Assembly (NCBI GenBank): GCA_964386385.1
Contig: CAYLRN010000007.1
Span: 54,374-118,373, forward strand
Direction: 5' to 3'
DNA length: 64,000 nucleotides
Origin: an uncultured Lentisphaeraceae bacterium
Lineage (GTDB): Bacteria; Verrucomicrobiota; Kiritimatiellia; RFP12; UBA1067
Position 1 is the first letter of the stretch, and each line of letters starts with the position of its first letter. The translations under genes were made by a program, and so were the position numbers. Shown piece by piece: positions 1,279 through 63,645 of the stretch. Below the pieces are notes generated by a model. It made no database searches, had not been told where the DNA came from, and saw only the letters and a list, made by a program, of their open reading frames with translations.

Positions 1279-1693
1279 GGGCGAACGGCGCGACGGGACG
1301 TCGTGCCCTACCGGGGACGGCCGTTCAATTGCCCTTTCAATCGCGACGGCGCGTGGGGACACGCGCCCTCCCCGTGAAAAGGCATGACGGTAGGGCGCGA
1401 CGTCTCGTCGCGCCGCCGTGGGCGGTTGCTTTCGCTTCGTGGAGTTTTGGAGGCTTGGAGTTCTTCGTCTCCCGATTTCCGAAACTCCCAGTGGCGAAAG
1501 CAACGAGACGAGGGGATTTTTGTCTCACGCGGTGCCGCTGGCGGGACGTCGCGCCCTACCGAATTGGCCCTTCAACCGCCTTTTCCCCCGCAGCGGCGGA
1601 CGAGGACGTCCGCCCTCCCGATGAAAAGGCATGACGGTAGGGCGGGGCTTCCGCCCCGCCGCGTTGGCGGACGCGCAGGAGCGCGTCCCTCCC
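1279..1693. repeat. tandem block (~237-bp period, about 1.7 copies) of composite REP-like units built from three modules: X = GGCGCGACGGGACGTCGCGCCCTACC, Y = GGTAGGGCGCGACGTCTCGTCGCGCC, Z = an 80-nt long hairpin
   Basis: Modules X and Y recur with a 237-bp offset (X near 1290 and 1527; Y near 1375 and 1612). The same Z-X-Y unit recurs at 3089-3346. The palindromes GGCGCGACG-TCT-CGTCGCGCC, GGCGGGGC-TTCC-GCCCCGCC and GGACGCGC-AGGA-GCGCGTCC are read directly from the sequence. Confidence 0.6.
1435..1536 (+). other. long imperfect hairpin (module Z: GTTGCTTTCGC...GCGAAAGCAAC, 11-bp closing stem with a nested GGAGTTT/AAACTCC stem) followed by a short hairpin GAGACGAGGGGATTTTTGTCTC; a structured element or small RNA candidate
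   Basis: Inverted repeats seen directly. A second copy at 3089-3190 keeps the pairing and has compensating changes (GATT to AAAC inside the loop region). Confidence 0.4.
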
Positions 1694-1784
1694 ACAGGGG
1701 AATGATTTTTCGTGTCCGCGCAGATGGTGTTCGCGTCCTTTTGTGCTTACCCCATAGAGCCTCTCCAACCGTCCGCATCCTTCT

Positions 1785-2045
1785 TCGTCCGCACCGTAAT
1801 CTCATTCGTTCGTCCTCTGCGGGAAGTGTTGCGCAATCGTTCGCTACCGCACCGTCGTCCAATCCAATCATTTGATTGCATGCCTACTAGATGCCATTTT
1901 GGGAAGTTCAATGGCAGACTGCAATGATGGAGGCAGGATTCCACCACCCACGGATTTTTATAAGTCCGTGGGTGGTTTTAGTGCGGAGAATGGAGAATGA
2001 GGTCTTCCCTTCGTAAGATTATGATGCGGACGAAATTGCTGGCGT
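1785..2045. mobile_element. MITE-like low-GC element with degenerate terminal inverted repeats (TCGTCCGCACCGTAATCTCAT ... TAAGATTATGATGCGGACGAA)
   Basis: The left arm matches the perfect inverted-repeat element at 2120-2194, and the right arm is a diverged copy. GC content drops sharply inside. No transposase ORF. Confidence 0.35.
1944..1979 (+). terminator. rho-independent terminator-like hairpin CCACCCACGGA-(loop)-TCCGTGGGTGG followed by TTTTA
   Basis: 11-bp perfect stem followed by a T-run, located inside the MITE-like element. No nearby upstream gene, so its function is uncertain. Confidence 0.3.
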
Positions 2046-2119
2046 TGAGGTCGGAGGCTGTTTCTGTTTCATGGTGAAATCGGAGACGCGGAGAAAAGAA
2101 CTCGTTTCGCAGATTGATT

Positions 2120-2194
2120 TCGTCCGCACCGTAATCTCATGAATGCCGCTTCGCCGTCCTCCCTTCTTGTGTCATGAGATTACGGTGCGGACGA
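2120..2194. mobile_element. 75-bp element with perfect 23-bp terminal inverted repeats (TCGTCCGCACCGTAATCTCATGA / TCATGAGATTACGGTGCGGACGA)
   Basis: Perfect inverted repeat read directly; same arm sequence as the element at 1785-2045. Typical miniature inverted-repeat architecture. Confidence 0.4.
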
Positions 2195-2376
2195 ATTGCT
2201 AAACTCTTCAAAATGCCGCCTTGACAGGGCAAAAGAGAAAATGCTACACTAGCCGCGTTTCATGTTCGGAAAGGCTCTGTTCGGGGATGGGGAGCGATTG
2301 CCCGAAAGGGACGTTTTCGCCGTCTGGGGCGGGACTTTTGGGCAAGGCGATTTCAAGATTCAAGGGAAAGAGCAAA

Positions 2377-3078
2377 ATGGGCATTTGGGAAGTCTTTATG
2401 TCCTTGATTTCAAGATGCAGAAAGTCGTTGCAGGCGACTGCTGCCGAGATTGACGGACGGACGTGGTCGTACTCCGTCAGCTCGAGTACGGCGTCCATAA
2501 CTCGCGTCTTGCCGGGCGATGGGGAGGTCAATATACCATCAGAAGTAAATGGATACAAGGTGACGAGAATCGAATCGTCTGCGTTCCGTGGCTGTGGCGG
2601 TCTCAAGTCGGTGACTATCCCTTCGAGCGTGACGAGCATCGACAAGAAGGCGTTTCAAGCCTGTAGCGGCATAAAGTCGTTTTCAGTCGCGCACGACAAT
2701 CCGATATATTCCTCCGCCAACGGGTTGCTTTTGACAAAAGACGGTACGGAGTTGATCGCCGGCGTGAACGGTGACGTGCAAATCCCCTCGGGCGTGACGA
2801 GCATCGGCGAGCGTGCGTTCTACGACTGCATCAGCCTGACGAGCGTGACGATCCCTTCGGACGTGGCGAGCATCGGCGAGTATGCGTTCTACGGCTGCAT
2901 CAGCCTGACGAGCGTGACGATCCTGGGGAATGCGCCGGACATCGCAGACAGCATCCTGATTCCGTCGGACGCCGTGGTGTACGTCATGCGTGGGGCGACA
3001 GGGTGGGATGTGCAGATTCCAGGTACATGGAAGGGATGTCGTATCGAGCATATCTCCCGAGCGGACGCCCTGGGCTGA
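2377..3078 (+). CDS. BspA-type leucine-rich-repeat (LRR_5) protein, short and possibly a truncated fragment
   Basis: Repeated ~23-aa units IPSSVTSIGEYAFYGCISLTSVTIP are typical of BspA-like LRR surface proteins. No signal peptide and only 234 aa (BspA proteins are usually long and secreted). Low GC (about 50%). The ORF starts at 2221, but ATG 2377 has an AAGGGAAAG ribosome-binding site. Confidence 0.5.
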   Translation: MGIWEVFMSLISRCRKSLQATAAEIDGRTWSYSVSSSTASITRVLPGDGEVNIPSEVNGYKVTRIESSAFRGCGGLKSVTIPSSVTSIDKKAFQACSGIKSFSVAHDNPIYSSANGLLLTKDGTELIAGVNGDVQIPSGVTSIGERAFYDCISLTSVTIPSDVASIGEYAFYGCISLTSVTILGNAPDIADSILIPSDAVVYVMRGATGWDVQIPGTWKGCRIEHISRADALG

Positions 3079-3088
3079 CAATGAGTAC

Positions 3089-3346
3089 TGCTTTCGCTGT
3101 GTGGAGTTTTGGAGGCTTGGATCTCTTCGTCTCCCAAACTCCGAAACTCCCGGTGGCGAAAGCAACGGGGCGAGGGGATTTTTGTCTCACGCGCCGCTGC
3201 GGGCGAACGGCGCGACGGGACGTCGCGCCCTACCGAATTGGCCCTTCAACCGCCTTTTCCCCCGCAGCGGCGGACGAGGACGTCCGCCCTCCCGATGAAA
3301 AGGCACGATGGCAGGGCGCGACGTCTCGTCGCGCCGCCGTGGGCGA
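3089..3346. repeat. single composite REP-like unit (Z hairpin, X, Y); a direct repeat of the block at 1279-1693
   Basis: About 90% identity to 1435-1650 over roughly 230 bp, with the module order conserved. Confidence 0.6.
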
Positions 3347-3523
3347 TCATGTGGTTGATGGCGAATGGCCATGCGCCTCCCGATGAGACTGGCATCAGAC
3401 GTTTAACCGCCTTATCTCCCAAAGCATGAGGGCGGACGATGCCGTCCGCCCTCATGGAACTCAATCACTTGACTGCTTAACCGCCTAACAGTTTTTCCAG
3501 ACGTTCGCGCCTGGAAAAACTGT

Positions 3524-4804
3524 CTATTCTGCGCGCTTCGTGACGCGCGACCCGATCAGCGCGTAGAAGAGCACGTAGGCGAAGAGTCCGATCGTGAGCC
3601 AGTAGCTGTTGAGGAAGCCGACCTTGTCCGCAATCATGCCTTGAACGGGAAGCATCAGTCCGCCGACGACCATCGTCATGAAGATGCCGGAGCCCATCGG
3701 CACGTACTTGCCAAGGCCTTCGGCCGCCATGTTGAAGATTCCGCCCCACATCACGGACGTGCAGAGGCCGCCCAGCACCATGGCGCACATCGCAAGCGGG
3801 AACTCCTTGCCGAACACCGACACCATCTTGACCGGCATGTACATCGTCGCAAGCATGAGGCCGATGCCGAGGATTGAGCAGACGGTGATCATCACGCGGG
3901 AGGAGATCTTCGCGCCGAGGGCGCTGCCGGCAAGGCGGCCCAGCATCATGCAGAACCAGTAGGCTCCGCACACGCTGCCGGCCACGACCGGGCCGACGTA
4001 CGCCGGGTTCGCAACGTCGCCGATCTTCTCCGCGTTCATGTAGAGCATGGCCATGTTCGGGATGCCGCTCTCGATCGTGATGTACATGAAAATCGCAAGG
4101 GCTCCGAGCGAGAAGTGGCGGAAGGAAAGCGTCTTGGCGATGTCGCCGAAGACCGACGTGCGGTTCGCGCGCTCCTCGGCCGTCTCAAGGTGCGGTTCGG
4201 GAATTGCCGAGAAGGCGATCACGACGAACGCAATCGCGAAGATCGCCATCGCGATGGCAAGCGCCGGGACGGCGTCGGCCACTTTCGCCTTGGCGACTTC
4301 GCCGCCGACAAGGTAGCCGAGAATCATCGGGGAGAGCGTGGCGCCGATCGAGTTGAGCGAGCAGCCGCACTGGACGAGCTGGTTGCCCTTGTTGCCGCCG
4401 CCGCCGAGCGTGTTCAGAAGCGGGTTCACGACGAGGTTCAGAAGGCACATCGAGAGGCCCGCCACGAACGCGCCCGTGACGTAGACGTTGAACGCGCTGC
4501 CCTTGTTGCAGTAGGCCGAGACCAGCTGGATGCCGACGCCCGCGAAGCCGACGGCCGCCGCGAGGAGCGACGTGAACTTGTAGCCCTTGCGCTTCAGGAT
4601 GAGGCCGCCGGGGATGCCCATGAAGAAGTAGGCGAAGAAGTTCGCGGCGGAGCCCAGCTGCGAGGCGGTGTTCGACGCGCCGAACTGGCTCTTGAGGATC
4701 GGGCCCATCGCGCCGGCGAAGTTCGTCACGAACGCGATCATGAAGAATAGGGCGAAGCACACGCCGATGGCGAGTGCGCTGCCCTTGGATTTGCTGTCAG
4801 ACAT
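3524..4804 (-). CDS. MFS sugar transporter of the FucP/GluP (glucose/galactose or fucose permease) family
   Basis: 426 aa with 12 predicted TM helices and a composition and length typical of FucP-family permeases. Lies directly downstream of galK on the same strand (76-bp gap). ATG has an AAGAAAGG ribosome-binding site. Confidence 0.8.
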   Translation of the reverse strand: MSDSKSKGSALAIGVCFALFFMIAFVTNFAGAMGPILKSQFGASNTASQLGSAANFFAYFFMGIPGGLILKRKGYKFTSLLAAAVGFAGVGIQLVSAYCNKGSAFNVYVTGAFVAGLSMCLLNLVVNPLLNTLGGGGNKGNQLVQCGCSLNSIGATLSPMILGYLVGGEVAKAKVADAVPALAIAMAIFAIAFVVIAFSAIPEPHLETAEERANRTSVFGDIAKTLSFRHFSLGALAIFMYITIESGIPNMAMLYMNAEKIGDVANPAYVGPVVAGSVCGAYWFCMMLGRLAGSALGAKISSRVMITVCSILGIGLMLATMYMPVKMVSVFGKEFPLAMCAMVLGGLCTSVMWGGIFNMAAEGLGKYVPMGSGIFMTMVVGGLMLPVQGMIADKVGFLNSYWLTIGLFAYVLFYALIGSRVTKRAE

Positions 4805-4879
4805 TGAATTGGCCTTTCTTGTCGTTTGAGGATGATGTCGTGTCTTGTCGTCTTGTCAAAATGGTGATGCCGCTCGGCC

Positions 4880-6052
4880 TCACACGAGGTGCGCGCCCGC
4901 GCTGGGCTTGATCAGCGCACAGATGGGCTCGTCGCCGTAGACGGTCTTGTAGGCCGCCTTGATCTGCGCGGAGATCTTGTCCGCCGCCTCCGGCTTGACG
5001 AGCAGGCAGCAGCTGCCGCCGAAGCCGCCGCCGGAGAGGCGGGCGCCGAGCACTTCGGGAATCGCCTTGGCGGCGTCGACGATCGTGTCGAGCTCCGCGC
5101 AGGAGTTCTCGAACCAGCTGCGGCTCGACTCGTGCGAATCGAACATGAGCGAGCCGAATGCGGCCAGGTCGCCCTTCGCCAGGAGTTCCGCGCCCATGAG
5201 GACGCGCTCGTCCTCGCCGATCGGGTGGATGGCTCGCTTGGCGGTCGTCTCCGGAAGTCCGCCGCGGTAGAGAATCCACTCAGCGCACGTGACGTCGCGA
5301 AGGTGGGTGACCGGGTGCTTCAAGACGCCGGCGAAGTACTTGGCAGCGTCCTCGCAGGCCTGACGGCGGCTTGCGTAGGCTCCGTCCACGAGCGCGTGTT
5401 TCGCGTTGGACTTGACCATCATGAACGCGACGGACGGGCCGAGGTCCACGTTCTCGAACTGGCAGTGGCGGAAGTCGCTCTTGACGAGCGCTCCCTCCTT
5501 GCCGTAGAGGGACGAGGCCTGGTCGAGGAGGCCGCACGGGCAGCCGGCGAACGTGTGCTCGGACTTCTGGCCGATCTTGGCGAGCGTCGTCCTGTCCTTC
5601 TCGATTCCGTAGACCTTGCAGAGCGCCAGGGCGGTACACATTTCAAGCGCGGCGGACGACGAGAGCCCGGCGCCGAGGGGGATGTTCCCCAGGAACATTC
5701 CCTTCCATCCGTGCTTCGCGGCGGCGGGATTGCCGTCGAAGAGCCAGTTGAACGTGCCGGTGGCATAGTTCTGCCACGTCATCTCCTTGGCCGGCTTCAC
5801 GTCGGCGATGTCGAATTCGACCGTCTCCATCAGGTCGCCGGCCGTCAGCGAACACGAGGCGTCCGCCGTCGGGGCGATGGCGAAGAACGTCCCCTTGTCG
5901 ATGGCCGCCGAGAAGACGTAGCCCTCGTTGTAGTCGGTGTGGTTGCCCAAGACCTCGATGCGGCCGGGTGCGTAGGCGACAGCCGCCGGCTTCATCCCGT
6001 ACTTCTTCTCGAACTTTGCGACCAACTCGTCGTAGACTTCCTGGTTCTGCAT
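4880..6052 (-). CDS. galK: galactokinase
   Basis: GHMP-kinase motifs PGRIEVLGNHTDYNEG and GAGLSSSAALE; C-terminal GGGFGGSCCLL. Start placed at MQNQEVY, which has an AAAGGAG ribosome-binding site (the ORF extends 28 codons further upstream). Confidence 0.9.
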   Translation of the reverse strand: MQNQEVYDELVAKFEKKYGMKPAAVAYAPGRIEVLGNHTDYNEGYVFSAAIDKGTFFAIAPTADASCSLTAGDLMETVEFDIADVKPAKEMTWQNYATGTFNWLFDGNPAAAKHGWKGMFLGNIPLGAGLSSSAALEMCTALALCKVYGIEKDRTTLAKIGQKSEHTFAGCPCGLLDQASSLYGKEGALVKSDFRHCQFENVDLGPSVAFMMVKSNAKHALVDGAYASRRQACEDAAKYFAGVLKHPVTHLRDVTCAEWILYRGGLPETTAKRAIHPIGEDERVLMGAELLAKGDLAAFGSLMFDSHESSRSWFENSCAELDTIVDAAKAIPEVLGARLSGGGFGGSCCLLVKPEAADKISAQIKAAYKTVYGDEPICALIKPSAGAHLV

Positions 6053-6171
6053 GGAAACTCCTTTTACGAACTTGACGCCTTGATTATCCATTATATCGCC
6101 ACGAAAGTCAAGAGGGCAAAATCGGAGTCGGCGCAAATACAGGACATCCCGGACGTGCTATAATTTCGCGC

Positions 6172-7719: not shown

Positions 7720-7720
7720 A

Positions 7721-9520: not shown

Positions 9521-9541
9521 GTGATGTCTCCGTTTTTCTGT

Positions 9542-10069
9542 TCAGACCTCAAGGAAACGCCCCGCCTTGCGCGGCGGCGGCGGGGGAAGGGGCGCGACGG
9601 CGTAGCCCAGGGCGAGATGCCCCACGCCGACGTACTTTCCGGGAAGGGAGAGGCGCTTCACGACCTCCGCGACGACGCCGTCCGGATTCTCGCTCTCCTC
9701 CCTGGCGCGGTGGATCCAGCACGAGCCAAGCCCAAGCGAGTGGGCGGCGAGCATCATGTTTCCGAGGACGAGCGAGCCGTCGCAGACCGCGGTGTTCACG
9801 CCGGCCTCGACGAGGACGAGCAGGATCTCCGGCGCGCCGTAGAACGGGTCCATGTCGCGTCCGAGAATCGCGGCGTTCTCCGCGGAGATGCGCGCGCGGA
9901 GGGCGGCGTCCTTCAGGCGGACGACAATGGGGCTTTGCAGCCCGCGCCCGGACGCCGCCCAGACGCCAGCCTCCACCACCTTTGCCACAAGTTCGTCCGC
10001 AATCGGGTCCGGGCGGTAGTTCTTGCAGGAGCGACGCTCCCGCACCAGTTTTATCAGTTCGTCGTACAT
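9542..10069 (-). CDS. nitroreductase-family protein
   Basis: 175 aa with the nitroreductase-fold N-terminus (RRSCKNYRPDPI) and an overall match to NfnB-like proteins. AGGAGG ribosome-binding site before the ATG. Confidence 0.8.
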   Translation of the reverse strand: MYDELIKLVRERRSCKNYRPDPIADELVAKVVEAGVWAASGRGLQSPIVVRLKDAALRARISAENAAILGRDMDPFYGAPEILLVLVEAGVNTAVCDGSLVLGNMMLAAHSLGLGSCWIHRAREESENPDGVVAEVVKRLSLPGKYVGVGHLALGYAVAPLPPPPPRKAGRFLEV

Positions 10070-10087
10070 TCAGCCTCCTGGTAGAAT

Positions 10088-10200
10088 GGTTAAGTGGTTA
10101 AGCGGTTAAGTTCGCTGTGGGGCGGGCGAAGATCAGGCGGTCAAGTCGGTAGGGCGCGACGTCTCGTCGCGCCGCCCTGCCGGAACTTGACCGCTTGATT
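10088..10200. repeat. REP-like cluster: tandem TTAAGTGG/TTAAGCGG repeats plus GGTAGGGCGCGACGTCTCGTCGCGCC-GCCCTGCC
   Basis: Seen directly. Same unit family as at 1391, 35196 and 42195. Confidence 0.6.
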
Positions 10201-10204
10201 CCCG

Positions 10205-12464: not shown

Positions 12465-12517
12465 TTGGCTAGTCGGCGCTACGGCTTCGGCCGTGGTTGC
12501 GGCGTAACCTTTTTAAA

Positions 12518-18913: not shown

Positions 18914-19068
18914 ATGGCCTGCGTGGCGGGGCGGGACGCCCCGCCCTGCCGGATTTGCATGTGAACGGCGGAGGTGAAGCGACGGACGGGAGTCGGCAGG
19001 GGGCGGCGTTCCCGTCGCGCCGAACGGCGGCCTGGCGGCGGGTTTTGCATTGCGCGACGGCCTCATCG

Positions 19069-37700: not shown

Positions 37701-37955
37701 GGGAGGGACGCGCTCCCGCGCGTCCGCCGCAAAGACGGCATTCTACGGGAGGGCGCGTGTCCCCAGGCGCCGCCCGGCTTCGGTCGCGCAGGAGCGCGAC
37801 CCTCCCGGCTTGACCACTTGATTTTTCGTGTCCCGCAGGGCTTTGGCGTGTTCAGTGGCAAATCCTGCCCTCGGCGGCGCGACGAGACGTCGCGCCCTGC
37901 CGGTGAAGGCCCGTCAAGTGCAACTTGACCACTTAACGCTTAACCACTTAATCAC
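37701..37955. repeat. REP-like cluster (GGGAGGGACGCGCTCCCGCGCGTCC; GGTCGCGCAGGAGCGCGACCCTCCC; GGCGCGACGAGACGTCGCGCCCTGCC; ACTTAACGCTTAACCACTTAAT repeats)
   Basis: Seen directly; same families as elsewhere in the window. Confidence 0.6.
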
Positions 37956-37994
37956 TATATGGTATATTCTTCCGCAAACGAAATCAACGACTGA

Positions 37995-39180: not shown

Positions 39181-41859
39181 TCAGCGGATGAGGACGAGGA
39201 ATCCGGAGGGGTTCTTGCCGACGACCTTGCCGACGCGCGCGAAGGGGGTCTTGTCGTTCAGGAAGAAGGGCTTCGCGCCGACCTTGTCCCAGAGCGCGGG
39301 CATTCCGTTTTCTCCGCCCAGGCGCACGGGGACGAAATTGCGCACGAGGACTCCGTCCTGCCAGACCTTCATCCCGTAGATCCGCGCGCGCGAGGTCTGC
39401 TTTGCCTCGCCCTTCACGTTCTCGCCGAAGAGGTACATGGAAAGGCCGGTGTCAACTTCGAAGTCGCCCGCGCGGTCCAGCACGGTCTCGCCGTCCACGG
39501 CGATCTGGATGCGGTCCGCCGCGAAGTCCGTCCGCACATGATATTTGCGGGCGGGGTCGACGTAGACGCCCTTTGCGGCCTCGTTCCATCCCATCTCCGC
39601 AGACGGGTCGCCCTTCTTGACGTAGAAGAAGCTCCCGCATCCGTAGCTGAACACGCTGCGCGCGTTGTGCCAGGGGTAGAAACGCATGGGGCCGTTGGCG
39701 GCGTTGTCCCCCTCGCCATCCACGCGTTCCCGGCCAGAGCCGAAGAAGCCGACGTCGCCGCCGACGTCTAGCCACGCCATGTCGAACTCCGCCACCATGC
39801 CGCTGCGGCCGACGATTTCCATGTCCAGCCAATGTCTGCCGTCCGTCTCGAGGAATTCGACGAGATGCGTGGGGCGGAGGGCGGCGACGTCCTTCGCCGG
39901 GCCGATGCAGTGGTCCGGCAGGGGGAGGACGGTGAAGTAGACCTTGTCGCCCACGGCGTCGTAGAGGCCGGCGCGTCCGTTCTTCATGCAGGGGCTGAAG
40001 TCGCGCACGAGTTCGCCGTCCTGCCAGATCTTGAGTTCGTAGACGCGGGAGCGTCCGGCGTAGCGCAGACTCTTGTTTCCGACGTTCGCGCCGAAGAGGT
40101 AGAGGCTGCATCCCGCGTCGACCGGATCAGCCACCTGTTCGGAGACGTACTGCACTCCGTCCAGGGCGAGCGTCTGCGCGTCGGCCATGTACGACGCCTC
40201 GTATTCGTAGTCCCGGTCGACCGACAGCCCGATTCCGTCCGTGGTCTCCGCCGATGCCGTGGGATAGATTTTCGTCATGCCGTATCCGAACCAGAGCGCC
40301 CCGGCGGGCGAATGGATCAGGTACATGCGGTTGTTCGAGTCCGACGCGCAGGCGCCGAGGAAGGTGGTTTCGTTCAGCGAATCGACGTGCGAGAAGAAGT
40401 TGCCGCGAGTGCCGAGTGCGTTCCAGCGCATCTTCGCCGCGGCGGCGGTGCCGGTGCGCGCGCGGACGCCCGTGTCGAGGTACGTGCAGCCGGGCGATTC
40501 AACGTACTCAAGGTAGTAGTCTGGTCTGCCGGAGGCCGTAATCGGCGCGGTGACGAGTTCGCCGCCCTGCGGATAGAAGATGCGCCTGTCGACGGCGTCG
40601 TAGAGCGCGACGCGGCCGTACTTGACGCATGGGAGGAAGTCGCGCACGAGCGCGCCGTCCTGCCAGATCTTGAGAGACCAGAGACGCGCCTTGCTCTTGT
40701 TCAGGGCCTCTTCGCCGACGTGGTTGGCGAAGAGGTAGAGGCTGCGGCCTGTGTCGTAGGACGCGGAGGAGGTGGCGGAGTAGACGCGTCGGCCGTCGAC
40801 GTCCATCGTCTGGCTGCCGGCGTCAAGGGAGGTTTCGACGAGATAGCGCGTTCCCGCGGTGAAGAGTGTGTCGTCCGTCGCGCGGATGAACGTGCCGTAG
40901 CCGATTGCGGGCTTGTTGTCCCAGGCGGAATGCAGCAGGAAGACTCGGTCGTTCACGTCCAGGGACGAGCGGGCGTTGAGGAATGCGTAGTCGCCGTTGA
41001 GGTTGAGCCAGGCCATGTCCGCCCTGCACGACGTGCCGGAGCGTCCGGGCACCTCGACGTCCACGTACGCGCTGCCTGTCGAATCCGCGTACTCGACGAA
41101 ATAGTCCGGCTCGTTGTACGCGGCGTCGTACGCCAGGTCGTCCGTGCCGTCGATGGCGTAGAGGATGGCGTCGGAGACGGCGTCGTGGAGGCCGGCGCGG
41201 CCGTCCTTGAGGCAGGGCCTCAGGTCGCGGACGAGTTCGCCGTCCTGCCAGACCTTGAGGGAGTAGACGCGCGCCCACGCCCTGTTGGTGACGACGCCGT
41301 CCACGTTGTCCGCGAAGAGGTGGAGGTTGAGGCCTGTGTCCGAAAGACCGTCTGCCACGACCGGGCACGGCGCGTTGGTGACGTCCGAGTAGTAGGCGGG
41401 ATAGTAGATGCGGTCTCCCCATTCGGGACGCAGGAGCGCGAACGTCATCGCCGTCTGCGTCTCGTTCGTAGTGAAGAACTCGACGGTCGCGGTGAAGTCG
41501 CGGTCCTTCTCCCACTGGTAGTTCGTCCATTGATTGGGGCGCAGCAGGGTGGCCTCCGAGCCGAAGCCGAAGACCGCATTGCCATTGGCGGTGCTCGAAT
41601 GGATGAACTCCGCGCGGGAGGCGTCGTCGCCGGTCTTCGCGGCGCCGAGAAGGCACATTTCGCCGTTGCGCTCGGCCGTCCACCGGAACTTGACCTGGAC
41701 CTTCGTGTCCGCGCGCCCGACGACGCCGACGTCGACGGCGGAACGTCCATGCGCCTCGACGTACTCAAGCCATGCGTCGGGCGTCTCCGCCCGCGTCATC
41801 CCGGCGCCAAGCAGCGCAAGCCCGCACGCCGCGCAGGCCATCATGTGTCCGTTCGCCAT
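39181..41859 (-). CDS. secreted protein composed of four tandem ~215-aa repeats of unknown function
   Basis: Signal peptide. Each repeat ends with a conserved block, for example RVYSLKVWQDGELVRDLRPCLKDGRAGLHDAV, ARLWSLKIWQDGALVRDFLPCVKYGRVALYDAV, SRVYELKIWQDGELVRDFSPCMKNGRAGLYDAV and ARIYGMKVWQDGVLVRNFVPV. Confidence 0.6.
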   Translation of the reverse strand: MANGHMMACAACGLALLGAGMTRAETPDAWLEYVEAHGRSAVDVGVVGRADTKVQVKFRWTAERNGEMCLLGAAKTGDDASRAEFIHSSTANGNAVFGFGSEATLLRPNQWTNYQWEKDRDFTATVEFFTTNETQTAMTFALLRPEWGDRIYYPAYYSDVTNAPCPVVADGLSDTGLNLHLFADNVDGVVTNRAWARVYSLKVWQDGELVRDLRPCLKDGRAGLHDAVSDAILYAIDGTDDLAYDAAYNEPDYFVEYADSTGSAYVDVEVPGRSGTSCRADMAWLNLNGDYAFLNARSSLDVNDRVFLLHSAWDNKPAIGYGTFIRATDDTLFTAGTRYLVETSLDAGSQTMDVDGRRVYSATSSASYDTGRSLYLFANHVGEEALNKSKARLWSLKIWQDGALVRDFLPCVKYGRVALYDAVDRRIFYPQGGELVTAPITASGRPDYYLEYVESPGCTYLDTGVRARTGTAAAAKMRWNALGTRGNFFSHVDSLNETTFLGACASDSNNRMYLIHSPAGALWFGYGMTKIYPTASAETTDGIGLSVDRDYEYEASYMADAQTLALDGVQYVSEQVADPVDAGCSLYLFGANVGNKSLRYAGRSRVYELKIWQDGELVRDFSPCMKNGRAGLYDAVGDKVYFTVLPLPDHCIGPAKDVAALRPTHLVEFLETDGRHWLDMEIVGRSGMVAEFDMAWLDVGGDVGFFGSGRERVDGEGDNAANGPMRFYPWHNARSVFSYGCGSFFYVKKGDPSAEMGWNEAAKGVYVDPARKYHVRTDFAADRIQIAVDGETVLDRAGDFEVDTGLSMYLFGENVKGEAKQTSRARIYGMKVWQDGVLVRNFVPVRLGGENGMPALWDKVGAKPFFLNDKTPFARVGKVVGKNPSGFLVLIR

Positions 41860-41967
41860 GCCCGTCTCCTTTGACTGTTAGGAAGTCCGTCTGCCAAAAA
41901 TGCAATCCGACATTCACGAGACAATTATATCTGTTTTTTTTTCCCTGTCAATCGGCGGGGCCAAGGA

Positions 41968-42515
41968 GATTAAGTGATTAAGTGGTTAAGTGGTCAAGCG
42001 AGTGGATGACCGGGTGGTCAAGCGGTTAAGTGGATAGATGATCGGATGGTCAAGCGAGTGGGCGGCGGACGCGCGGGAGCGCGTCCCTCCCACGGGGACG
42101 GCCATCCGGTAGGGCGGGGCGTCCCGCCCCGCCGCCGCGGACGAAACGGCGCGACGTCGCAATTCCGTCGCGGAAAAAGGCGGAACAGACGTATTTTCGG
42201 TAGGGCGCGACGTCTCGTCGCGCCGTTTCGCCGATGGCGGCGCGTGAGGACACGCGCCCGCCCGATGCGCAGACGGATGCGGCGGGGCGGGACGCCCCGC
42301 CCTACCAGATTGGCAGTTCAACCGCATTCTGTGGTATAATGGCGCAAGGCATGAAAGACATGACCGCCGGATGCCGGCGGCCATGTGGTTAAGTAGTTAA
42401 GTGATTAAGCAGTTGAGTAGGCAAGGGTTGAGTAGACAAGTGGTCAAGCAGTTAAGCGGGAAGCCTCTGCCCGCGCACTGACGCACTTGACCACTTGACT
42501 GCTTAACCTCTTGAT
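41968..42515. repeat. large REP-like cluster in a divergent intergenic region (TTAAGTGG-type repeats x2 blocks; GGACGCGCGGGAGCGCGTCCCTCCC; GGTAGGGCGGGGCGTCCCGCCCCGCC; GGTAGGGCGCGACGTCTCGTCGCGCC; GCGGGGCGGGACGCCCCGCCCTACC)
   Basis: Seen directly. It also contains a candidate extended -10 promoter (below). Confidence 0.6.
42310..42340 (+). promoter_or_regulatory. candidate promoter TTGGCA-N19-TGgTATAAT upstream of the FGE-domain gene; the transcript would carry TTAAGTRG repeats in its 5' UTR
   Basis: TATAAT at 42335-42340 with an upstream TG. The spacer is long (19 bp), so confidence is low. Confidence 0.3.
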
Positions 42516-42536: not shown

Positions 42537-45500
42537 ATGAAGAGACTTCTGGTGATGGCGGCTGTGGCCGCGGCGGTTCTCGCCTGCCGGGCGGAGAGCC
42601 GCAAGGACAGGGCGATCAGGCGCCTTCAGGCAGTCAAGGCGGAGAGCGTGCGCATGGCGTGGGCCGACATGGCGAAGCGCTGGCCGGACAGGTTCGAGGC
42701 GAACCCCGCCTGGCTGCGCGACTTCGAGAAGACGCAGAAGCGTCTGCTTGACTCGATGATGGGCGACTGGGGGCCCTACTACGGCGAACTCGAGCCGGTC
42801 GCCGGCGCGGAGAAGTTCCTCGCCGACCTGCGCGCGCGCCTCCTCTCCAACCCTCTCCTCGACTGCGACAGGCTGCTCGTCGTCCGCCGCCGCCCCGACC
42901 GGCTCGGCCTCCACCAGAACTGGCAGCAGCCGCGCGACGTCGCAAGCTGTCAGAACGAACTCGGCATCCTCTCCAACCTGCGCGCCGCCCCGTCGTTCGC
43001 CGCCGCAGACGAGACGAAGAGCGGCTACATCGGCGAGCTCTGCCTCCACTGGGACGGACGGCGCGTGATGTACACGAGAAGGACGGACCGCACGGACAGG
43101 CCGCCGAAGTCGCGCGGCTCGCGTCCCGTGGAGACGATCGACCGCGTCTTCGAGCTCGACCTCTCCCGGCCCGGCGCGAAGCCGCGCGAACTGCCGCTCA
43201 TCCCCGACGCCGACGTCAACTGCTACGCCGGCTGCTACCTCCCCGACGGCGCCGTCATCTTCATCTCCGACGCCTCCATGGTCGGCGTCCCCTGCGTTGT
43301 CGGACACAGCTGGGTGGGAAGCCTCTACCGCAGGGAGCCCGACGGCGCGATCCGCCGCCTGACGTTCGACCAGGACAACAACTGGTGCCCCAACGTCATG
43401 CCCGACGGGCGAGTCATGTTTCTCCACTGGGAGTACGCCGACATCACCCACTACTGCTCGCGCATCCTCTTCACGATGAACCCGGACGGCACCACGCAGC
43501 GCGCCTGCTACGGCAGCGATTCCTACTGGCCGAACGCGCTCTTCAACGCCCGCCCATGCCCCGACAACCCCGACATGTTCACGGCCATTGTCACAGGACA
43601 TCACGGCCAGCCCCGCTACGGCGAGCTGACGCTCTTCGACGTGAACAGGGGGCGCAAGCGCGCGGACGGCGTCGTCCAGCGCTTCACCGAGCGCGGAAAG
43701 AAGGTGGAGCCGATCGTGCGCGACCGCCTGGCGGACTACTCCTGGCCGAAGTTCTGCCACCCCTGGCCGCTGTCCTCGTCGTACGTCGTCGTCGCCGCGC
43801 GTCCGACGGAGAAGGACGGCTGGGGACTCTACCTCGCGGACGAGTTCGACAACCTGACGCCCATCGTCGAGGACGCCGCCAACGTCTACATGGAGCCGAT
43901 TCCCCTGCAGCCGGCGAAGACGCCGCCCGTGATCGCGTCCCGCGTCGACCCCGCCTCCACCACCGGCCTCATGAAGGTCACGGACGTCTACGACGGTCTC
44001 GGCCTCCGCGGCGTCCCGCGCGGGACGGTCAAGTCCCTGCGCCTCTACACCTATTCGTTCGCCTACCGCTGGATGGGCGGCGAGACCGACCACCACGGTC
44101 TCGACGGTCCATGGGACATAAAGCGAATCATCGGCACCGTCCCGGTCGAGGCCGACGGCTCCGCCTACTTCACCGTGCCCGCGAACCTTCCCGTCTCCAT
44201 CCAGCCGCTCGACGCCAAGGGCCGCGCCGTGCAGCTCATGCGCAGCTGGACGCAGTCGATGCCGGGTGAAATGGCCTCGTGCAGCGGCTGCCACGAGGAG
44301 AACCAGGCCAGCGCCGGGCCGAACCACCGCCTTTTGGCAATGGAGCGCAAGGCCTCCGCGATAAAGCCCTGGCACGGGCCCGAGCGCGGCTTCGACTTCC
44401 GCCGAGAAGTGCAGCCCGTCCTGGACCGCTACTGCGTCTCGTGCCACGACGGAAAGTCGAAGCTCGACCTGACGGACCGCCCGGAGATCTGCATCAAGAC
44501 GAAGGAGACGTACTACATGAACGACGGCTTCTTCCCGCCGTCGTACGTTGCCCTCTGCTCGTACGTACGCAACCACACGCAGGAGGGGGACAACGACGTC
44601 CTCTCGCCCTGCGACGTCGCGGCGGACACCACCGCGCTCGTGCAACTGCTCGAAAACGGACACCACGGCGTGCGGCTGGACGACGAGGCGTGGGACCGCA
44701 TCGACACCTGGATTGACCTCAACCGCATGGGACACGGCACGTGGCACGAAACCGTCGGCACCAACCGCGTCGCCCATTTCGCCGCCCGCCGCGCCGACCT
44801 CCAGAAACGCTATGCGAACGTCGTCGAGGACCACGAGAGGACGTACGGCATGGCCGTTCTGAAGACGCCCGCGCTTTCGCGCCTCCCCGCGCCGCCGAAG
44901 CCCGCCCCCGCGAAGATCCTTTCCGTCGGAACGCGCTCCGAACCGCTGCGCAGGACTCTCGACCTCGGCGGCGGAGTGTCCGTGGAGCTCGCGCGCATCC
45001 CCGCCGGACGCTACGTGGACGCCTCGGGCGCGGAGGTGGAGATCGCGCGTCCGTACTGGATGGGCGTGGACGAGATAACGAACGAGCAGTACCGCCGCCT
45101 TGTGCCGTCGCACGACAGCGGACTTGAGCGCGGCGAGTTCATGCAGTTCACAGAGCAGGAGCGCGGATACCCGCTGAACGAGCCGGACCAGCCCGTCGTG
45201 CGCGTCTCCCGCGACGAGGCCGCCGCCTACTGCGCCGCGCTTGCGAAGAAGACGGGCGCGAAGGTGCGCCTGCCATCTGGCGGCGAATGGGAATGGGCCG
45301 CGCGCGCCGGCGCCGCGACGCCGCTCTGGTGGGGCGACCGCGACGTGGACTTCTCGAAGAAGGGCAACCTGGCGGACAGGACGTTCCGCCGGCAGGACCG
45401 CTTCCGGGCGAACGTCCCCGGCATGGCCGTCCCGCCGTGGCGTCCGGCCGACGAGCGTTTTGACGACGGCTACCGCGTGAGCGCGCCCGTGGCGGCGTTC

Positions 45501-54999: not shown

Positions 55000-55230
55000 A
55001 TGGCGAAGAAAGAAGAAGACAGTGCGATTGAAGTGACGGGGACGGTCGTGAAGGTCCTCCCCGCGACCATGTACAACGTCCGCCTTGAGAACGGACACGA
55101 AGTGCTGGCCCACGTTTCGGGCAAGATGCGCAAGTTCTCCATCAAGATCGCGATCGGGGACAAGGTGACGGTGGAGATTTCCCCGTACGACCTGAGCAAG
55201 GGGCGCATCACCTACCGCCACAAGGTCTGA
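55000..55230 (+). CDS. infA: translation initiation factor IF-1
   Basis: 76 aa, S1-like, …[27 protein letters not shown]…. Confidence 0.9.
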
Positions 55231-55234
55231 CGCC

Positions 55235-56995: not shown

Positions 56996-57021
56996 CGGCG
57001 ACTTCATCGGAGGCAAGTGCA

Positions 57022-57513: not shown

Positions 57514-57715
57514 CCCCTCGCTCGCTGAACGGCCAATGCCGGGAGGGGTGCGCTCCTGCGCGCCCGCCCATCCGCCCGCCCGTTCTTCCGCACGCGCACT
57601 TGCCGCCTGCTTTCTCGCTCTTTTGCCCTTCCTTCCGTCCGCCTGTCTGCCCATGGCGTCCGCATAGGCCATTGCTTTCGCCTATGGAATGTCTTGGCCG
57701 TCAGAGTTTTGCACC

Positions 57716-58498: not shown

Positions 58499-58562
58499 CG
58501 CGGGGAAGCCGTCGTCCGAGAGGTCGGCCTTGAACGTCCCCTGCGGGTCGTCTCTGGCGCTG

Positions 58563-59495
58563 TCATGCGCGGCGCGCAAAGTCCTTCTCCACGATGCCGA
58601 GCGCGGCGATGCGCTCCAGCAGTTCGCGTTCGCGTTCCGGCGCCACGGGCGCGTACGGCGCGCGGTAGAAGCCGCAGTCGATTCCGACGTGGCGCATGAG
58701 GACCTTGATGTCGCTCCAGTTGTCCGGAAAGGCGTCGATCACCAGGTCTACGAGGCGGTTGGCCGCCGCCTGCCAGCGGCCCGCCTCGGCGAAGTCGTTG
58801 CGCGCGCAGCATTCGCAGATCTTCGCGAAGTGGCGCGGGATGAGGTTGTAGTTGAGGCCGATGCCGCCGGAGAACGTGTCGCCAAGCGCGAGCGCGGAGA
58901 CGAGCAGCTCGTCGCAGCCGGCGAACCAGATTGTCTCCTTGTCCAGCATCCGGCGCAGGCGCTGGCAGACGTAGAAGTCCTTGCCCGTGTACTTGATTCC
59001 CTTCACGTTCTTCAGGTCGAAGAGCCGCGCGTCGCGGTCCGGCACGAGCGCGGAGTTGAAGGCGTAGATGAGGAAGGGGAGGTCCGTCGCCTCGCTGATG
59101 GCCTTGTAGTGGCGAAGGGTGGACGGGAAGTTCTGCCCGAAGTAGATCGGCGCGACGGACGACACCCAGTCCACGCCCGCCCGCGCCGCCGCCTTCGCAA
59201 GGGCAACCGCGTCGTCTGTGCGGACGCATCCGACCTGCGCGATGAACTTGCACCGCCCGCGCCCGGCTCTCACCGCGCGCCGGTACACCGTCTCCCTCTC
59301 CTCCGGCGTCAGCAGCGCGCCCTCGCCAGTGGAGCCCGTCAGATAGAATCCCTTCAGGCCTTCGCGCACGCCGTATTCCACCAGCGCCTCGATCGCCTCC
59401 TCGTTTACTTTCCCGTCTGCCGTGAACGGCGTGAACATTGCGCTGAACGCGCCCGCCATTCCCTTGAATTCGTCACCTTTCAGGTCAGGTGTCAT
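58563..59495 (-). CDS. nanA: N-acetylneuraminate lyase (DapA/NanA family)
   Basis: …AMFTPFTADGKVNEEAIEALVEYGV…GFYLTGSTGEG… DapA/NanA-family N-terminus. ATGA overlap with the upstream transporter. The track shows it only as the tail of a 925-aa frame artefact. Confidence 0.8.
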   Translation of the reverse strand: MTPDLKGDEFKGMAGAFSAMFTPFTADGKVNEEAIEALVEYGVREGLKGFYLTGSTGEGALLTPEERETVYRRAVRAGRGRCKFIAQVGCVRTDDAVALAKAAARAGVDWVSSVAPIYFGQNFPSTLRHYKAISEATDLPFLIYAFNSALVPDRDARLFDLKNVKGIKYTGKDFYVCQRLRRMLDKETIWFAGCDELLVSALALGDTFSGGIGLNYNLIPRHFAKICECCARNDFAEAGRWQAAANRLVDLVIDAFPDNWSDIKVLMRHVGIDCGFYRAPYAPVAPERERELLERIAALGIVEKDFARRA

Positions 59496-62119: not shown

Positions 62120-62345
62120 TTGCACCCATTCTACCATAAGGAACGCCTGCGGATTTATGCGTTTGCCGAAATGCGCGTTTGGACAAATCCCGTCCCCCGC
62201 CACGTGGTATACTCTATTCTAGCATGATTGATTTCAGCATGATTATTGCACTGTCCAGAGACAATGGGCGCAACAGCGCTCTGCGTCTCTGCGCCTCTGC
62301 GTTGAAAAACACCTCTTCACACTAACCACCAACCACTGGACACTT

Positions 62346-63539
62346 ATGGAAAAGCAAATCTCCCTTGCCCTCACCCTTGCCCTCTGCCTTGCGTCGCCGA
62401 CGATGGCGGCGCAGCCTTCCGCCGCGCCCGCCAGGTCGCCGCGCGCGGAAGTCATATGGACGCGCGCGGTGTCGCCGAATCCGGAGCGGTACGTCGGCTG
62501 GCCTTCTGTGGTGCGCCTCGCCAACGGCGACGTCATGGCTGTCTTCTCGGGCGACCGCGACGCGCACATCTGCCCGTGGGGCAAGGTGCAGATGGTGCGT
62601 TCGTCGGACGACGGCGAGACCTGGACGCAGCCGGTCACCCTCGCCAACGGCCCGATCGACGACCGCGACGCCGGAATCGTCCAGCTCCCGGACGGCAAGA
62701 TCGTCGTCACCTACTTCACCTCCGTCGCCTATCGCGACGCCCTGCGCGGCAAGACGTTCCCGCGCTCCGATCCGCGCTACTGGTGGCAGCGCCACGACGA
62801 GAAGATCTCCCCCGAAACACGTCAGGCGGCCCTCGGCTTCTACCGCCTTGAATCCACCGACGACGGCAGGACCTGGTCGAAGCCGGAGAAGATGAAGGTC
62901 AGCCACGCGCCGCACGGTCCCGCCGTCCTCAACGACGGCTCGCTCCTCATGCTCGGCCGCTCCTTCGCCAACTCCCAGCTCGGCGCCGGCGAATCCGGCC
63001 GCACCATCATCAGCGCCTGGCGCTCCACCGACGCCGGCCGCACGTGGGCCTGCCTCTGTCCGGAACTCGCCGACGTCGACGGCGAGAACTCCCGCCCGCA
63101 CATGTTCCACGAACCACACGCCGCCCAGCTCCCCGACGGCACGATCGTCGGCCTCCTCCGCTACCACGGCGCCGACGGCTGCATGCGCCAGACCGTCTCC
63201 CGCGACGGCGGCCGCACGTGGACTCCCATGACGAAGACGCCCATGCTCGGACTTCCCCCGCACCTTCTCGTCCTCCCCGACGGCAAGCTCGTCAACGTCT
63301 ACGGCCGCCGCCTCCTCAAGCCCGGCGGCTACGGCGAATACGCCTGCATCTCCGACGACGGCGGCCGCACGTGGGACGTCGCCAACGAAATCTGCCTTTC
63401 GAAGTCCGAAGACAACGACCTCGGCTACCCCGCCTCCTGCCTCCTCGGCGACGGCTCGATCCTTACCGTCTACTACCAGCGCCCGAAGCCCGGCGCCCGC
63501 CAGACCCTCATGGCCACCAAATGGCGGGTCAGGGATTAA
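62346..63539 (+). CDS. exo-alpha-sialidase (GH33, BNR repeats)
   Basis: Signal peptide. Five Asp-box motifs S-x-D-x-G-x-T-W (SSDDGETW, STDDGRTW, STDAGRTW, SRDGGRTW, SDDGGRTW). Divergent from the NanM-SSS/nanA operon. Confidence 0.85.
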   Translation: MEKQISLALTLALCLASPTMAAQPSAAPARSPRAEVIWTRAVSPNPERYVGWPSVVRLANGDVMAVFSGDRDAHICPWGKVQMVRSSDDGETWTQPVTLANGPIDDRDAGIVQLPDGKIVVTYFTSVAYRDALRGKTFPRSDPRYWWQRHDEKISPETRQAALGFYRLESTDDGRTWSKPEKMKVSHAPHGPAVLNDGSLLMLGRSFANSQLGAGESGRTIISAWRSTDAGRTWACLCPELADVDGENSRPHMFHEPHAAQLPDGTIVGLLRYHGADGCMRQTVSRDGGRTWTPMTKTPMLGLPPHLLVLPDGKLVNVYGRRLLKPGGYGEYACISDDGGRTWDVANEICLSKSEDNDLGYPASCLLGDGSILTVYYQRPKPGARQTLMATKWRVRD

Positions 63540-63645
63540 GTGGTTAAGTGGTTAAGCAGTTAAGTGGTTAAGTGATTAAGTAGTCAAGTGGCTCTTCGCT
63601 CTTCCGCCCCGCTCGGGAGGGTCGCGCTCCTGCGCGACCGCCCCC
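63534..63645. repeat. REP-like cluster: 7 tandem TTAAGTGG-type 8-mers followed by GGGAGGGTCGCGCTCCTGCGCGACC
   Basis: Seen directly. Confidence 0.6.

Follow-up and report, generated by a model that had tools for sequence, protein, structure and literature searches.

Work on REP elements and RAYT transposases has so far dealt almost entirely with Proteobacteria, and the Kiritimatiellae, a phylum-level lineage, are known almost only from metagenome-assembled genomes (MAGs). The 64-kb stretch of DNA analysed here in full (the window) comes from a close relative of the Kiritimatiellae MAG267, with 85% nucleotide identity over window positions 3536–6055 (2.5 kb), and is rich in short, tagged palindromes. 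A preliminary description, made by eye, had read these as REP-like units mobilised by a RAYT. The question raised by this locus is whether that reading holds, and what the tandem octamers found among the units have to do with them.

Anatomy of the units

The units measure 23–26 nt in the scan, with stems of 8–9 bp and loops of 3–4 nt, and fall into two classes. Class T possesses a GG(T/C)AG tag, a 9-bp stem, and a TCY loop, the tag reading GTAG in ten units and GCAG in three. Class G possesses a GGGAG tag, an 8-bp stem, and a TCCY loop, with GGAG in 12 units and GGCG in one; in their architecture and their pairing with T units, G units otherwise resemble the T class. The tails of the units are rich in G(C/T)N. 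The hairpins predicted for the units as single-stranded DNA have folding energies of −12 to −16 kcal/mol (z-scores −2.3 to −4.2).

Among 21 distinct T-type sequences drawn from many contigs, neither the tag nor the outer GG/CC pair varies, while seven of the nine stem pairs are changed on both sides, albeit in sequences preselected as palindromes. The stem covariation score was reached by none of 500 shuffles, with the same preselection applying. A tag that is conserved while the stems vary freely does not fit a reading of the units as operators.

Census and positions in the window

The window was scanned for (G/C/T)AG tags that precede a stem-loop whose stem starts with GG, is 8–10 bp long, and has at most one mismatch, and whose loop is 3–5 nt long. 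This gave 27 matches, against a mean of 0.88 and a maximum of 3 in 50 second-order Markov simulations. Clean family members account for 24 matches, and two represent both readings of a symmetric palindrome at 3425–3456. The match at 5675 lies inside a gene and was rejected as a chance match. Direct reading added a truncated unit (1535–1558) and one with a degenerate tag (42239–42262), bringing the total to 26 units, split evenly between the two classes (13 T, 13 G). A unit is present at all 19 positions first listed by eye, and seven had been overlooked (1348, 1535, 1595, 3269, 37749, 42239, and 57543). The four stem variants initially recognised are likewise correct, but the variants number at least seven: GGCGCGACG, GGCGGGGCG, GGACGCGC, GGTCGCGC, GGCGCGTG, GGCGGACG, and GGGTGCGC. 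A count of heptamers, which is independent of any palindrome assumption, found that GGTAGGG/CCCTACC abuts a palindrome in ten of ten occurrences in the window (one palindrome being truncated), and GGGAGGG/CCCTCCC in 12 of 18.

Each unit is given from the (T/G/C)AG of its tag through the final base of its stem, with + denoting a tag at the left; unless otherwise indicated, units were found both by direct reading and by the scan. The leftmost T unit, at 1287–1310 (−), has the tag GGTAG, the stem GGCACGACG/CGTCGCGCC with one mismatch, and the loop TCC. It is followed by a G unit at 1348–1370 (−; GGGAG, GGCGCGTG, TCCC) and a T unit at 1391–1414 (+; GGTAG, GGCGCGACG-TCT-CGTCGCGCC). The T unit at 1535–1558 (−; ggcgggacgtcgcgccctacc), recognised by direct reading and as part of repeat family D14, is truncated in its distal arm. 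Beyond it lie a G unit at 1595–1617 (−; GGGAG, GGCGGACG, TCCT), a variant T unit at 1638–1660 (+; GGTAG, GGCGGGGC-TTCC-GCCCCGCC), and a G unit at 1669–1691 (−; GGGAG, GGACGCGC, TCCT). Next come a T unit at 3209–3232 (−; GGTAG, GGCGCGACG, TCC), a G unit at 3269–3291 (−; GGGAG, GGCGGACG, TCCT), and a T unit at 3312–3335 (+; GGCAG, GGCGCGACG, TCT).

Two T units were found by the scan further along: one at 10150–10173 (+), inside an octamer-like inverted repeat of 16–17 bp (GATCAGGCGGTCAAGT / ACTTGACCGCTTGATT), and one at 18925–18948 (−; GGCAG, GGCGGGGCG, TCC), 12 nt past the stop codon of a cinA-like gene. A T unit at 35198–35221 (+; GGTAG, GGCGCGACG, TCT) precedes two G units that form the left and right halves of a REPIN-like doublet, 35238–35260 (+; GGACGCGC, TCCC) and 35274–35296 (−; GGTCGCGC, TCCT). 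Three G units, at 37703–37725 (+; GGACGCGC, TCCC), 37749–37771 (+; GGCGCGTG/CAGGCGCC, one mismatch), and 37782–37804 (−; GGTCGCGC, TCCT), are followed by a T unit at 37876–37899 (−; GGCAG, GGCGCGACG, TCT).

The next units are a G unit at 42067–42089 (−; GGACGCGC, TCCC), T units at 42110–42133 (+; GGCGGGGCG, TCC) and 42201–42224 (+; GGCGCGACG, TCT), the G unit at 42239–42262 (−; stem GGCGCGTG, tag GGGCG rather than GGGAG; direct reading), and a T unit at 42281–42304 (−; GGCGGGGCG, TCC), also in family D14. The last of these has a conserved flank, ATTGGCAGTTCAACCGC, that runs into a match to the extended −10 element TGGTATAAT. The scan also found G units at 57543–57565 (+; GGGTGCGC/GCGCGCCC, one mismatch), with convergent genes on both sides, and at 63617–63639 (+; GGTCGCGC, TCCT).

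The units point in both directions (12 + and 14 −) and, as first described, are always intergenic: all 26 lie in non-coding DNA, which makes up 13.6% of the window on a rough gene map. They occupy nine separate intergenic regions, and a gene 3′ end is present in eight of the nine. By gene arrangement, units are found in three of four convergent, four of 13 tandem, and one of five divergent regions. Clusters reach seven units per region, and one divergent promoter region holds five. In related loci, where a crude mask assigns 54% of the sequence to coding regions, 90 of 110 units fall outside the mask. Two open reading frames that cross REP clusters in the window, 1329–1634 and 1384–1875, are spurious. 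Rfam recognised only four tRNAs in the window at gathering score and nothing meaningful in 1200–3600 at E ≤ 1.

Dispersal and RAYT genes in related genomes

Exact T units occur on eight contigs of MAG267, in three other PVC-group MAGs, and on 45 metagenome contigs, so that the palindromes form a family dispersed across related genomes, as had been supposed; a search of viral contigs with the T1 unit gave no match. The region of MAG267 that matches window positions 3536–6055 carries one unit, placed between two closely spaced ORFs.

No RAYT gene was found in the 64-kb window. Pfam gave no match for either the E. coli RayT or the RAYT of related locus L023 and is therefore unusable for excluding a RAYT, whereas the NCBIfam model NF047646 (REP_Tyr_transpos) does detect such genes. 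Searches seeded with E. coli RayT yielded only enterobacterial proteins among the matches listed, and a phmmer match in L023 served as a useful seed. RAYT genes flanked by inverted GGTAG units, whose tags point towards the gene, were found in four independent related lineages (L023, L059–62, L063, and L064–65), each with lineage-specific stems; the stem at L023, GGCGGGGCG, is present in the window too. These genes sit amid ordinary chromosomal genes. Their proteins match NF047646 with E values of 1.7e-18 to 2e-24; the insertion-free P0210 scores 86.1 bits and members with insertions 67–74, against a cut-off of 80. In alignments with E. coli RayT, the residues H99 and H101 (HUH), Y157 (catalytic Tyr), and N161-P162-V163 are invariant.

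The proposal of a REP/RAYT system is thus supported in part, by the GTAG REP anatomy, the dispersal, and the RAYT genes flanked by units in four related lineages, although the window itself has no RAYT. The suggestion that the GG[TG]AGGG head fits the RAYT model holds for the GGTAG units that flank RAYTs in relatives; of the GGGAG units of class G, none was seen beside a RAYT in the related loci.

Interpretation of the units

The anatomy of the units, their excess over chance, their intergenic placement, their dispersal across related genomes, and the T-type units at the RAYTs of relatives all favour reading them as REPs. The best explanation, to which we assign a probability of about 0.8, is that they are REP elements of the GTAG-tagged super-family in a Kiritimatiellae chromosome and were spread by a RAYT. 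By this mechanism, units would fold as hairpins in single-stranded DNA, and a single-copy RAYT, an HUH/Y1 enzyme, would recognise tag and stem, cutting and re-joining units and so copying and homogenising them within intergenic DNA. Fixed copies that are transcribed would probably serve secondarily as RNA hairpins at gene 3′ ends. RAYT catalysis on the units, a RAYT in the source genome, and any RAYT partner for the G class are inferences.

It is unlikely that the hairpins are instead host regulatory structures—terminators lacking a U-tract, mRNA 3′-end stabilisers, or protein-binding sites—that multiplied through ordinary duplication and selection, without a transposase. Such roles would suit stable hairpins that share eight of their nine regions with a gene 3′ end, and REPs elsewhere have been credited with them (PMC3733652). 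However, both orientations occur within one region, and clusters of up to seven units, as well as five units in a divergent promoter region, are not what such structures would lead one to expect. In the scanned regions, no intrinsic terminator (GC hairpin plus T-tract) was called at a unit cluster or coincides with a unit, and the RAYT genes of relatives are flanked by like units. A host regulatory role can nonetheless be a secondary function of REPs.

A second repeat family: the octamer arrays

The octamers belong to the family TTAAGYGG (the repeat unit also being written TTAAGTGG), and TTAAGYGGTTAAGYGG with up to two mismatches has 22 matches in the window against 0.01 expected. On the + strand, GGTTAAGY is repeated three times at 10087–10113, where the array adjoins the Shine-Dalgarno sequence and ATG of a minus-strand nitroreductase gene, on the upstream side. 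At 35130–35187 (+), three copies of GATTAAGT, a loop, and ACTTAACCGCTTGATC form an octamer hairpin that starts 12 nt past the proC stop codon, and at 37921–37956 (−), 4.4 copies overlap the −35 element of a TG-extended promoter match for a YkuD-domain gene. The array at 41968–42060 (+) lies directly upstream of a perfect minus-strand match to TTGACA-16-TATAAT (41951–41924), and the inverted arrays at 42386–42514 (+) constitute a long imperfect hairpin before the ATG at 42537. The array at 63534–63597 (+) begins on the TAA stop codon of a BNR-repeat gene; its seven copies (7.0 at 63536–63591 by Tandem Repeats Finder) agree with the maximum first reported. A short, degenerate array occupies 3462–3490 (−). 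Three or more octamers put TAA in all three frames of both strands, because the period is eight and TTAA is palindromic.

One of these arrays had been taken for a transcribed REP cluster lying between a promoter and its gene (42386–42515). It is composed of octamers, not REP units. Its transcription would depend on the TGGTATAAT extended −10 match read from the sequence, which a promoter scan requiring both hexamers did not call.

The arrays had also been described as flanking the units. Arrays are present in six of the nine regions with units, and no unit-free region has an array, but three regions have units without arrays. An overlap of this extent has P ~0.02 under random placement among ~15 intergenic regions of more than 100 bp. 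The coincidence of all six array-bearing regions with units, together with the octamer-like inverted repeat at 10133–10200 that encloses a unit, could be taken to mean that units and arrays together make up a single composite mobile element. That is very unlikely, since 57 related loci with 1–14 units each contain no TTAAGYGG array, the TTTTAACC-type array occurs only in L059/L060 and far from any unit, and the spacing between units and arrays in the window is not fixed. Because related loci bear units without TTAAGYGG arrays, the octamers do not belong to the REP element; they are a second repeat family, separate from it. A literature search with the octamer strings found nothing, and our best guess is that the arrays are promoter-proximal protein-binding arrays or UTR hairpins.

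Doublets, mosaics, and local duplication

Units also combine into larger structures. Inverted doublets occur at 35238/35274, 37749/37782, 1638/1669, and 42201/42239, and for the G+/G− doublet at 35236–35296 a single long hairpin is the predicted fold. A mosaic of ~110 nt with conserved linkers is present three times: the copy at 1295–1404 (repeat family D3) consists of T(−), a 34-nt linker, G(−), a 16-nt linker (GATGAAAAGGCATGAC), and T(+), and further copies lie at 1542–1651 and 3216–3325, with 65%–95% identity. The direct repeats 1427–1651 and 3089–3325 (D3, D13) are 88%–95% identical and carry three units each. For about seven units in 1236–3523, the number is due to this segmental duplication of ~235 nt and not to independent insertions.

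Such duplicated units invite the thought that segmental duplication in this region produced the whole family as a local artefact, and that it is not dispersed. This is highly improbable: unrelated sequences surround the units of seven other intergenic regions, and the exact units in other MAGs and on 45 metagenome contigs already contradict it. A CRISPR array is ruled out by the mixed orientations and irregular spacing.

Comparison with known systems

GTAG REPs and RAYT loci have already been documented in the PVC group, in Opitutus terrae and Rhodopirellula baltica, according to the available text of Di Nocera et al. (2013, PMC3733652). As described there, the super-family shares with the present units a GTAG/GYAG tag on one side of a stem of 6–13 bp with a loop of 2–4 nt; sub-families whose stems differ by complementary changes, and several families per genome; inverted dimers, clusters, and placement between tandem and convergent genes; and, for the relatives, RAYTs flanked by units. 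Kiritimatiellae are not among the hosts named in that text. While GYAG is a published degeneracy of the tag, GGAG, carried by half of the window units, is absent from the degeneracies listed in the same text. On the text of that paper, the stems and the TCY and TCCY loops are group-specific here.

E. coli REPs and BIMEs (PDB 4ER8; PMC3479197) likewise combine two REP types in alternating orientation with conserved linkers (compare the Y and Z REPs), and the E. coli transposase gene, like the loci of the relatives, has REP/BIME clusters on both sides; HUH, Tyr, and NPV residues are common to the proteins. The E. coli REPs are ~35 nt long with imperfect stems, whereas the units here are shorter and form perfect hairpins, and the relatives' proteins are only ~22% identical to RayT (P0175 against 4ER8, E 0.01).

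The REPIN-RAYT system of Pseudomonas (Bertels & Rainey 2011, PMC3116915; PMC5581495) shares inverted doublets able to fold as one hairpin, as well as RAYT loci amid ordinary chromosomal genes. In contrast to REPINs, many doublets here are mixed (T plus G) with arms that are not mutually complementary, and singletons and larger mosaics are common. With the subterminal hairpins of IS200/IS605, the units have in common a hairpin with a short guide-like motif and an expected HUH/Y1 recognition on single-stranded DNA. However, they are not the ends of a transposase-bearing insertion sequence, and the relatives' proteins match the RAYT model, the IS200 model NF033573 reaching only E 0.009 for one protein.

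REP units within RAYT genes and implications

The RAYT genes of relatives, unlike E. coli rayT, carry REP units in frame, at two fixed sites and in variable copy number: forward after YFITICAxxxxPW and in reverse after the HUH strand PDHLHFIVH. In-frame units appear to match, in lineage-specific type, the units on either side of the gene. The number of REP-encoded repeats varies among the near-identical proteins P0121, P0122, and P0127 (88%–99% identity with the query), which indicates that units were gained or lost recently. A hybrid RAYT query with peptides encoded by the GGCGCGACG stem of the window retrieved none carrying them among 120 listed of 435 matches. The REP/RAYT literature searched, as far as its text was available, yielded no description of in-frame units. 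It is a tentative suggestion, and jointly a doubtful one, that a RAYT gene with in-frame units is a substrate or sensor of the REP population and that the octamers may be an undescribed promoter-proximal element. The former would imply autoregulation or self-templated homogenisation.

The repeat of the window is an ordinary REP-type element in a little-studied phylum, and its value lies in documenting, for the Kiritimatiellae, a BIME-like REP system with two tags. The RAYT-bearing contigs are mostly 1–5 kb long, which points to REP/RAYT repeats as a cause of assembly fragmentation in such genomes, and for annotation, spurious ORFs through REP clusters, such as the two named above, can be flagged. 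If confirmed, the in-frame units would matter more than the finding in the window itself, as RAYTs that carry them would offer a natural system for the mutual regulation of transposase and repeat.

Two classes of REP unit

A repeat family of short, GC-rich REP hairpins is confirmed in the window, which has a G+C content of 65%. With a unit defined as a (G/C/T)AG tag followed by a GG-started stem of 8–10 bp, at most one mismatch, and a loop of 3–5 nt, a scan yielded 27 matches, where 50 second-order Markov simulations averaged 0.88 and never exceeded 3. Clean family members account for 24 of these, and two are both readings of a single symmetric palindrome (3425–3456); the match at 5675, lying within a gene, was rejected as a chance match. 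Addition of a truncated unit (1535–1558) and a degenerate-tag unit (42239–42262) brings the total to 26; the preliminary description had counted at least 20, and a unit is present at all 19 positions that it named when the sequence is read there. In a test independent of palindromes, all ten GGTAGGG/CCCTACC heptamers in the window and 12 of the 18 GGGAGGG/CCCTCCC heptamers adjoin such a palindrome.

The units fall into two classes of 13. T-class units carry the tag GGTAG or GGCAG, a 9-bp stem (GGCGCGACG or GGCGGGGCG), and a TCT or TCC loop; G-class units carry the tag GGGAG, an 8-bp stem (GGACGCGC, GGTCGCGC, GGCGCGTG, GGCGGACG, or GGGTGCGC), and a TCCC or TCCT loop. Folded as single-stranded DNA, units reach −12 to −16 kcal/mol (z-scores −2.3 to −4.2), and the GG preceding the tag is predicted to be able to pair with the CC that follows the stem, leaving two tag bases bulged. 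The palindrome at 3425–3456 is a perfect one of 14 bp (CATGAGGGCGGACG-ATGC-CGTCCGCCCTCATG) that reuses the G-class stem GGCGGACG and bears a GAG tag on both sides.

Placement and arrangement in the window

Non-coding DNA makes up 13.6% of the window by a rough gene map, and it holds all 26 units, which bears out their description as always intergenic. They occupy nine separate intergenic regions, and on the same map units are held by three of four convergent, four of 13 tandem, and one of five divergent regions. The flanking genes are ordinary chromosomal ones: proC, cinA, and genes for MFS transporters, a nitroreductase, a class II aldolase, an FGE-sulfatase-domain protein, and a BNR-repeat protein. 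Segmental duplication accounts for the number of about seven of the units in 1236–3523: 1427–1651 and 3089–3325 are direct repeats of 88%–95% identity (families D3 and D13). Flanks in the remaining unit-bearing regions are unrelated.

Between these direct repeats of about 235 nt, each a hairpin repeat plus REP mosaic, lie a low-GC stretch and a gene for a BspA-type leucine-rich-repeat protein (2221–3078). The 1427–3325 segment is missing beside the orthologous MFS gene in the related Kiritimatiellae MAG267 (contig L004) and looks like a lineage-specific insertion. Its 117-nt hairpin repeat (1427–1543 and 3089–3205; 88% identity) folds into a long hairpin (TGCTTTCGC...GCGAAAGCA around GGAGTTTTGGAGG...CCGAAACTCC) and has no match in Rfam.

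Units are organised as inverted pairs and one type of mosaic. G+/G− doublets with tags outward lie at 35238/35274, where one long hairpin is predicted, and at 37749/37782; mixed T+/G− doublets lie at 1638/1669 and 42201/42239. In G−/T+ pairs the tags point inward across a conserved 16-nt linker, GATGAAAAGGCATGAC, present in three copies, and a T−/linker/G−/linker/T+ mosaic of about 110 nt (family D3) likewise occurs three times. This organisation shares the logic of E. coli BIMEs, whose two REP types take alternating orientations and are joined by fixed linkers.

A 32-nt tandem repeat of 2.3 copies (AAGTGCAGTAGAAGACGGATTTTAACCATGCA; 37588–37662) lies between a tRNA-Met terminator and a REP cluster. 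The minus-strand gene at 39181–41859, whose 892-aa product has no Pfam match, contains four internal repeats of about 585–665 nt (39328–41341; families D4, D6, D7, and D10). A tract of about 21 G with C-rich flanks (63665–63685; 90% G by Tandem Repeats Finder) lies in the final intergenic region and may mark a site of slippage or a weakness of the assembly.

Octamer arrays

Tandem TTAAGYGG octamers are real (22 matches in the window against 0.01 expected) and do reach seven copies, with 7.0 at 63536–63591. They usually form inverted arrays predicted to fold into long imperfect hairpins, as at 35130–35187 and 42386–42514 (199-nt fold, −85.7 kcal/mol, z = −5.75); the unit at 10150 is enclosed by a 16–17-bp inverted repeat. 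Read as ACTTAACC, arrays shortly precede the gene starts at 10069(−), 37995(+), 41859(−), and 42537(+); read as GGTTAAGT, they come after the stop codons at 35118 and 63539, two arrays starting at or just past the stop codon. Because of the period of eight and the palindromic TTAA core, three or more copies place a TAA stop in all three frames of both strands (e.g., 63536–63591).

In the promoter scan, a perfect match to the sigma-70 consensus, TTGACA-16-TATAAT (41924–41951, minus strand, before the 892-aa gene), with an A9 run within its spacer, has an array immediately upstream of it, and another array overlaps the −35 element of a TG-extended promoter match. The supposed REP cluster between a promoter and its gene at 42386–42515 is instead an octamer hairpin devoid of REP units, and the promoter invoked for its transcription was a TGGTATAAT match made by reading the sequence, where the promoter scan made no call.

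The reported co-occurrence of octamers with units holds within the window, where arrays are confined to unit-bearing regions, but not beyond it: no TTAAGYGG array was found in 57 related loci carrying units. The octamers are treated as a separate family. The sole array type in the 57 loci, tandem TTTTAACC-type octamers (L059, ~3165–3200; L060, ~1710–1745), lies distant from units between two same-strand genes, and suggests that arrays of TTAACC-containing 8-mers recur more widely among these genomes, the RAYT-bearing L059/L060 lineage included.

Dispersal in related genomes

The pattern GGYAGGGCGCGACGTCYCGTCGCGCC matches on eight contigs of MAG267, in two Lentisphaeraceae-labelled MAGs, and in one Verrucomicrobiota MAG, with zero matches in viral contigs. 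L004 shares 85%–86% nucleotide identity with window positions 3536–6055, so the source of the window is a close relative of MAG267; on L004 a lone unit occupies the short gap separating two ORFs. A wider T pattern matched 45 metagenome contigs. Over all these sequences T units keep an invariant tag and outer GG/CC pair, and their inner stem shows compensatory variation. Seven of nine stem pairs changed on both sides, and the covariation score was reached by none of 500 shuffles, which, as units were chosen as palindromes, demonstrates stem diversity under a constant tag rather than the existence of pairing. Other lineages, namely L059, L060, L065, and L015, carry G-type units as well.

RAYT genes flanked by units

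E. coli RayT has no Pfam match but matches the NCBIfam profile NF047646. Comparing every ORF of the fetched related loci with RayT by phmmer gave a single match, in L023 (4152–4649); this ORF itself matches NF047646 (E 1.7e-18, profile positions 4–145 of 146). Used as a seed, it recovered no fewer than 435 family proteins, one from an NCBI Kiritimatiellae MAG and two named 'REP element-mobilizing transposase RayT' by JGI. Five further members match the profile at E 4.5e-19 to 2e-24; the insertion-free P0210 alone exceeds its curated cut-off (86.1 bits vs 80). Alignment with E. coli RayT shows no variation in HUH, the catalytic Tyr, or NPV.

DNA of RAYT loci was examined from four lineages (L023, L059–62, L063, and L064–65). 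In all four, GGTAG-tagged hairpins with lineage-specific stems (GGCGGGGCG/GGCGCGGCC, GGTCACGCG/GGCGGTCGC, GGGGCGCAC) adjoin the RAYT gene, and the nearest unit on either side has its tag towards the gene; GGCGGGGCG is common to L023 and the window. The REP/RAYT interpretation, as initially proposed, is supported for the T class via relatives; for the window's own genome and for the G class it is a candidate reading. No RAYT gene was found in the 64-kb window itself. A query favouring RAYTs with peptides encoded by the window stem GGCGCGACG found none among the 120 matches listed, and no G-class unit was seen next to a RAYT in the relatives' loci.

Units inside RAYT reading frames

In all four lineages the RAYT frame also holds in-frame REP units at two fixed sites (L023, 4152–4649; L059, 10001–10672; L063, 10001–10576; L064, 9880–10560), with lineage-specific stems and variable copy number. 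Units are forward at site 1, after YFITICAxxxxPW, and reverse at site 2, after PDHLHFIVH. Among 146 proteins the spans holding the two sites range from 42 to 116 and 31 to 91 residues, against baselines of ~41–44 and 35–38 in E. coli RayT and P0210; all but one of the 146 have an FQRDF-to-NPVRK span of 25 residues. The inserted peptides are translated units of the same lineage, e.g., VGSRVPRDR and GHAGRVTLP from GGTCACGCG. Copy number is unequal among near-identical proteins (e.g., P0121, P0122, and P0127), and units have therefore been gained or lost recently. Frames with inserted units stay open, in a sample that somewhat favours intact frames because the protein database holds called ORFs only.

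Comparison with published REPs

GTAG-tagged REPs, as defined by Di Nocera et al. 2013 (PMC3733652), have 6–13-bp stems with short loops, a tag that may degenerate to GYAG and other forms, and complementary stem changes between sub-families; they form dimers and clusters, sit between tandem and convergent genes, and flank RAYT genes, with families already known in the PVC group (O. terrae and R. baltica). Against that account, the T class agrees in every feature testable here. The G class, which shares this architecture and forms pairs with T units, has a different tag, GGAG. A literature search found no paper tying RAYTs to Kiritimatiellae. Taken as a whole, the biology is ordinary and the host unusual; the one intriguing side finding is the presence of REP units inside RAYT genes.
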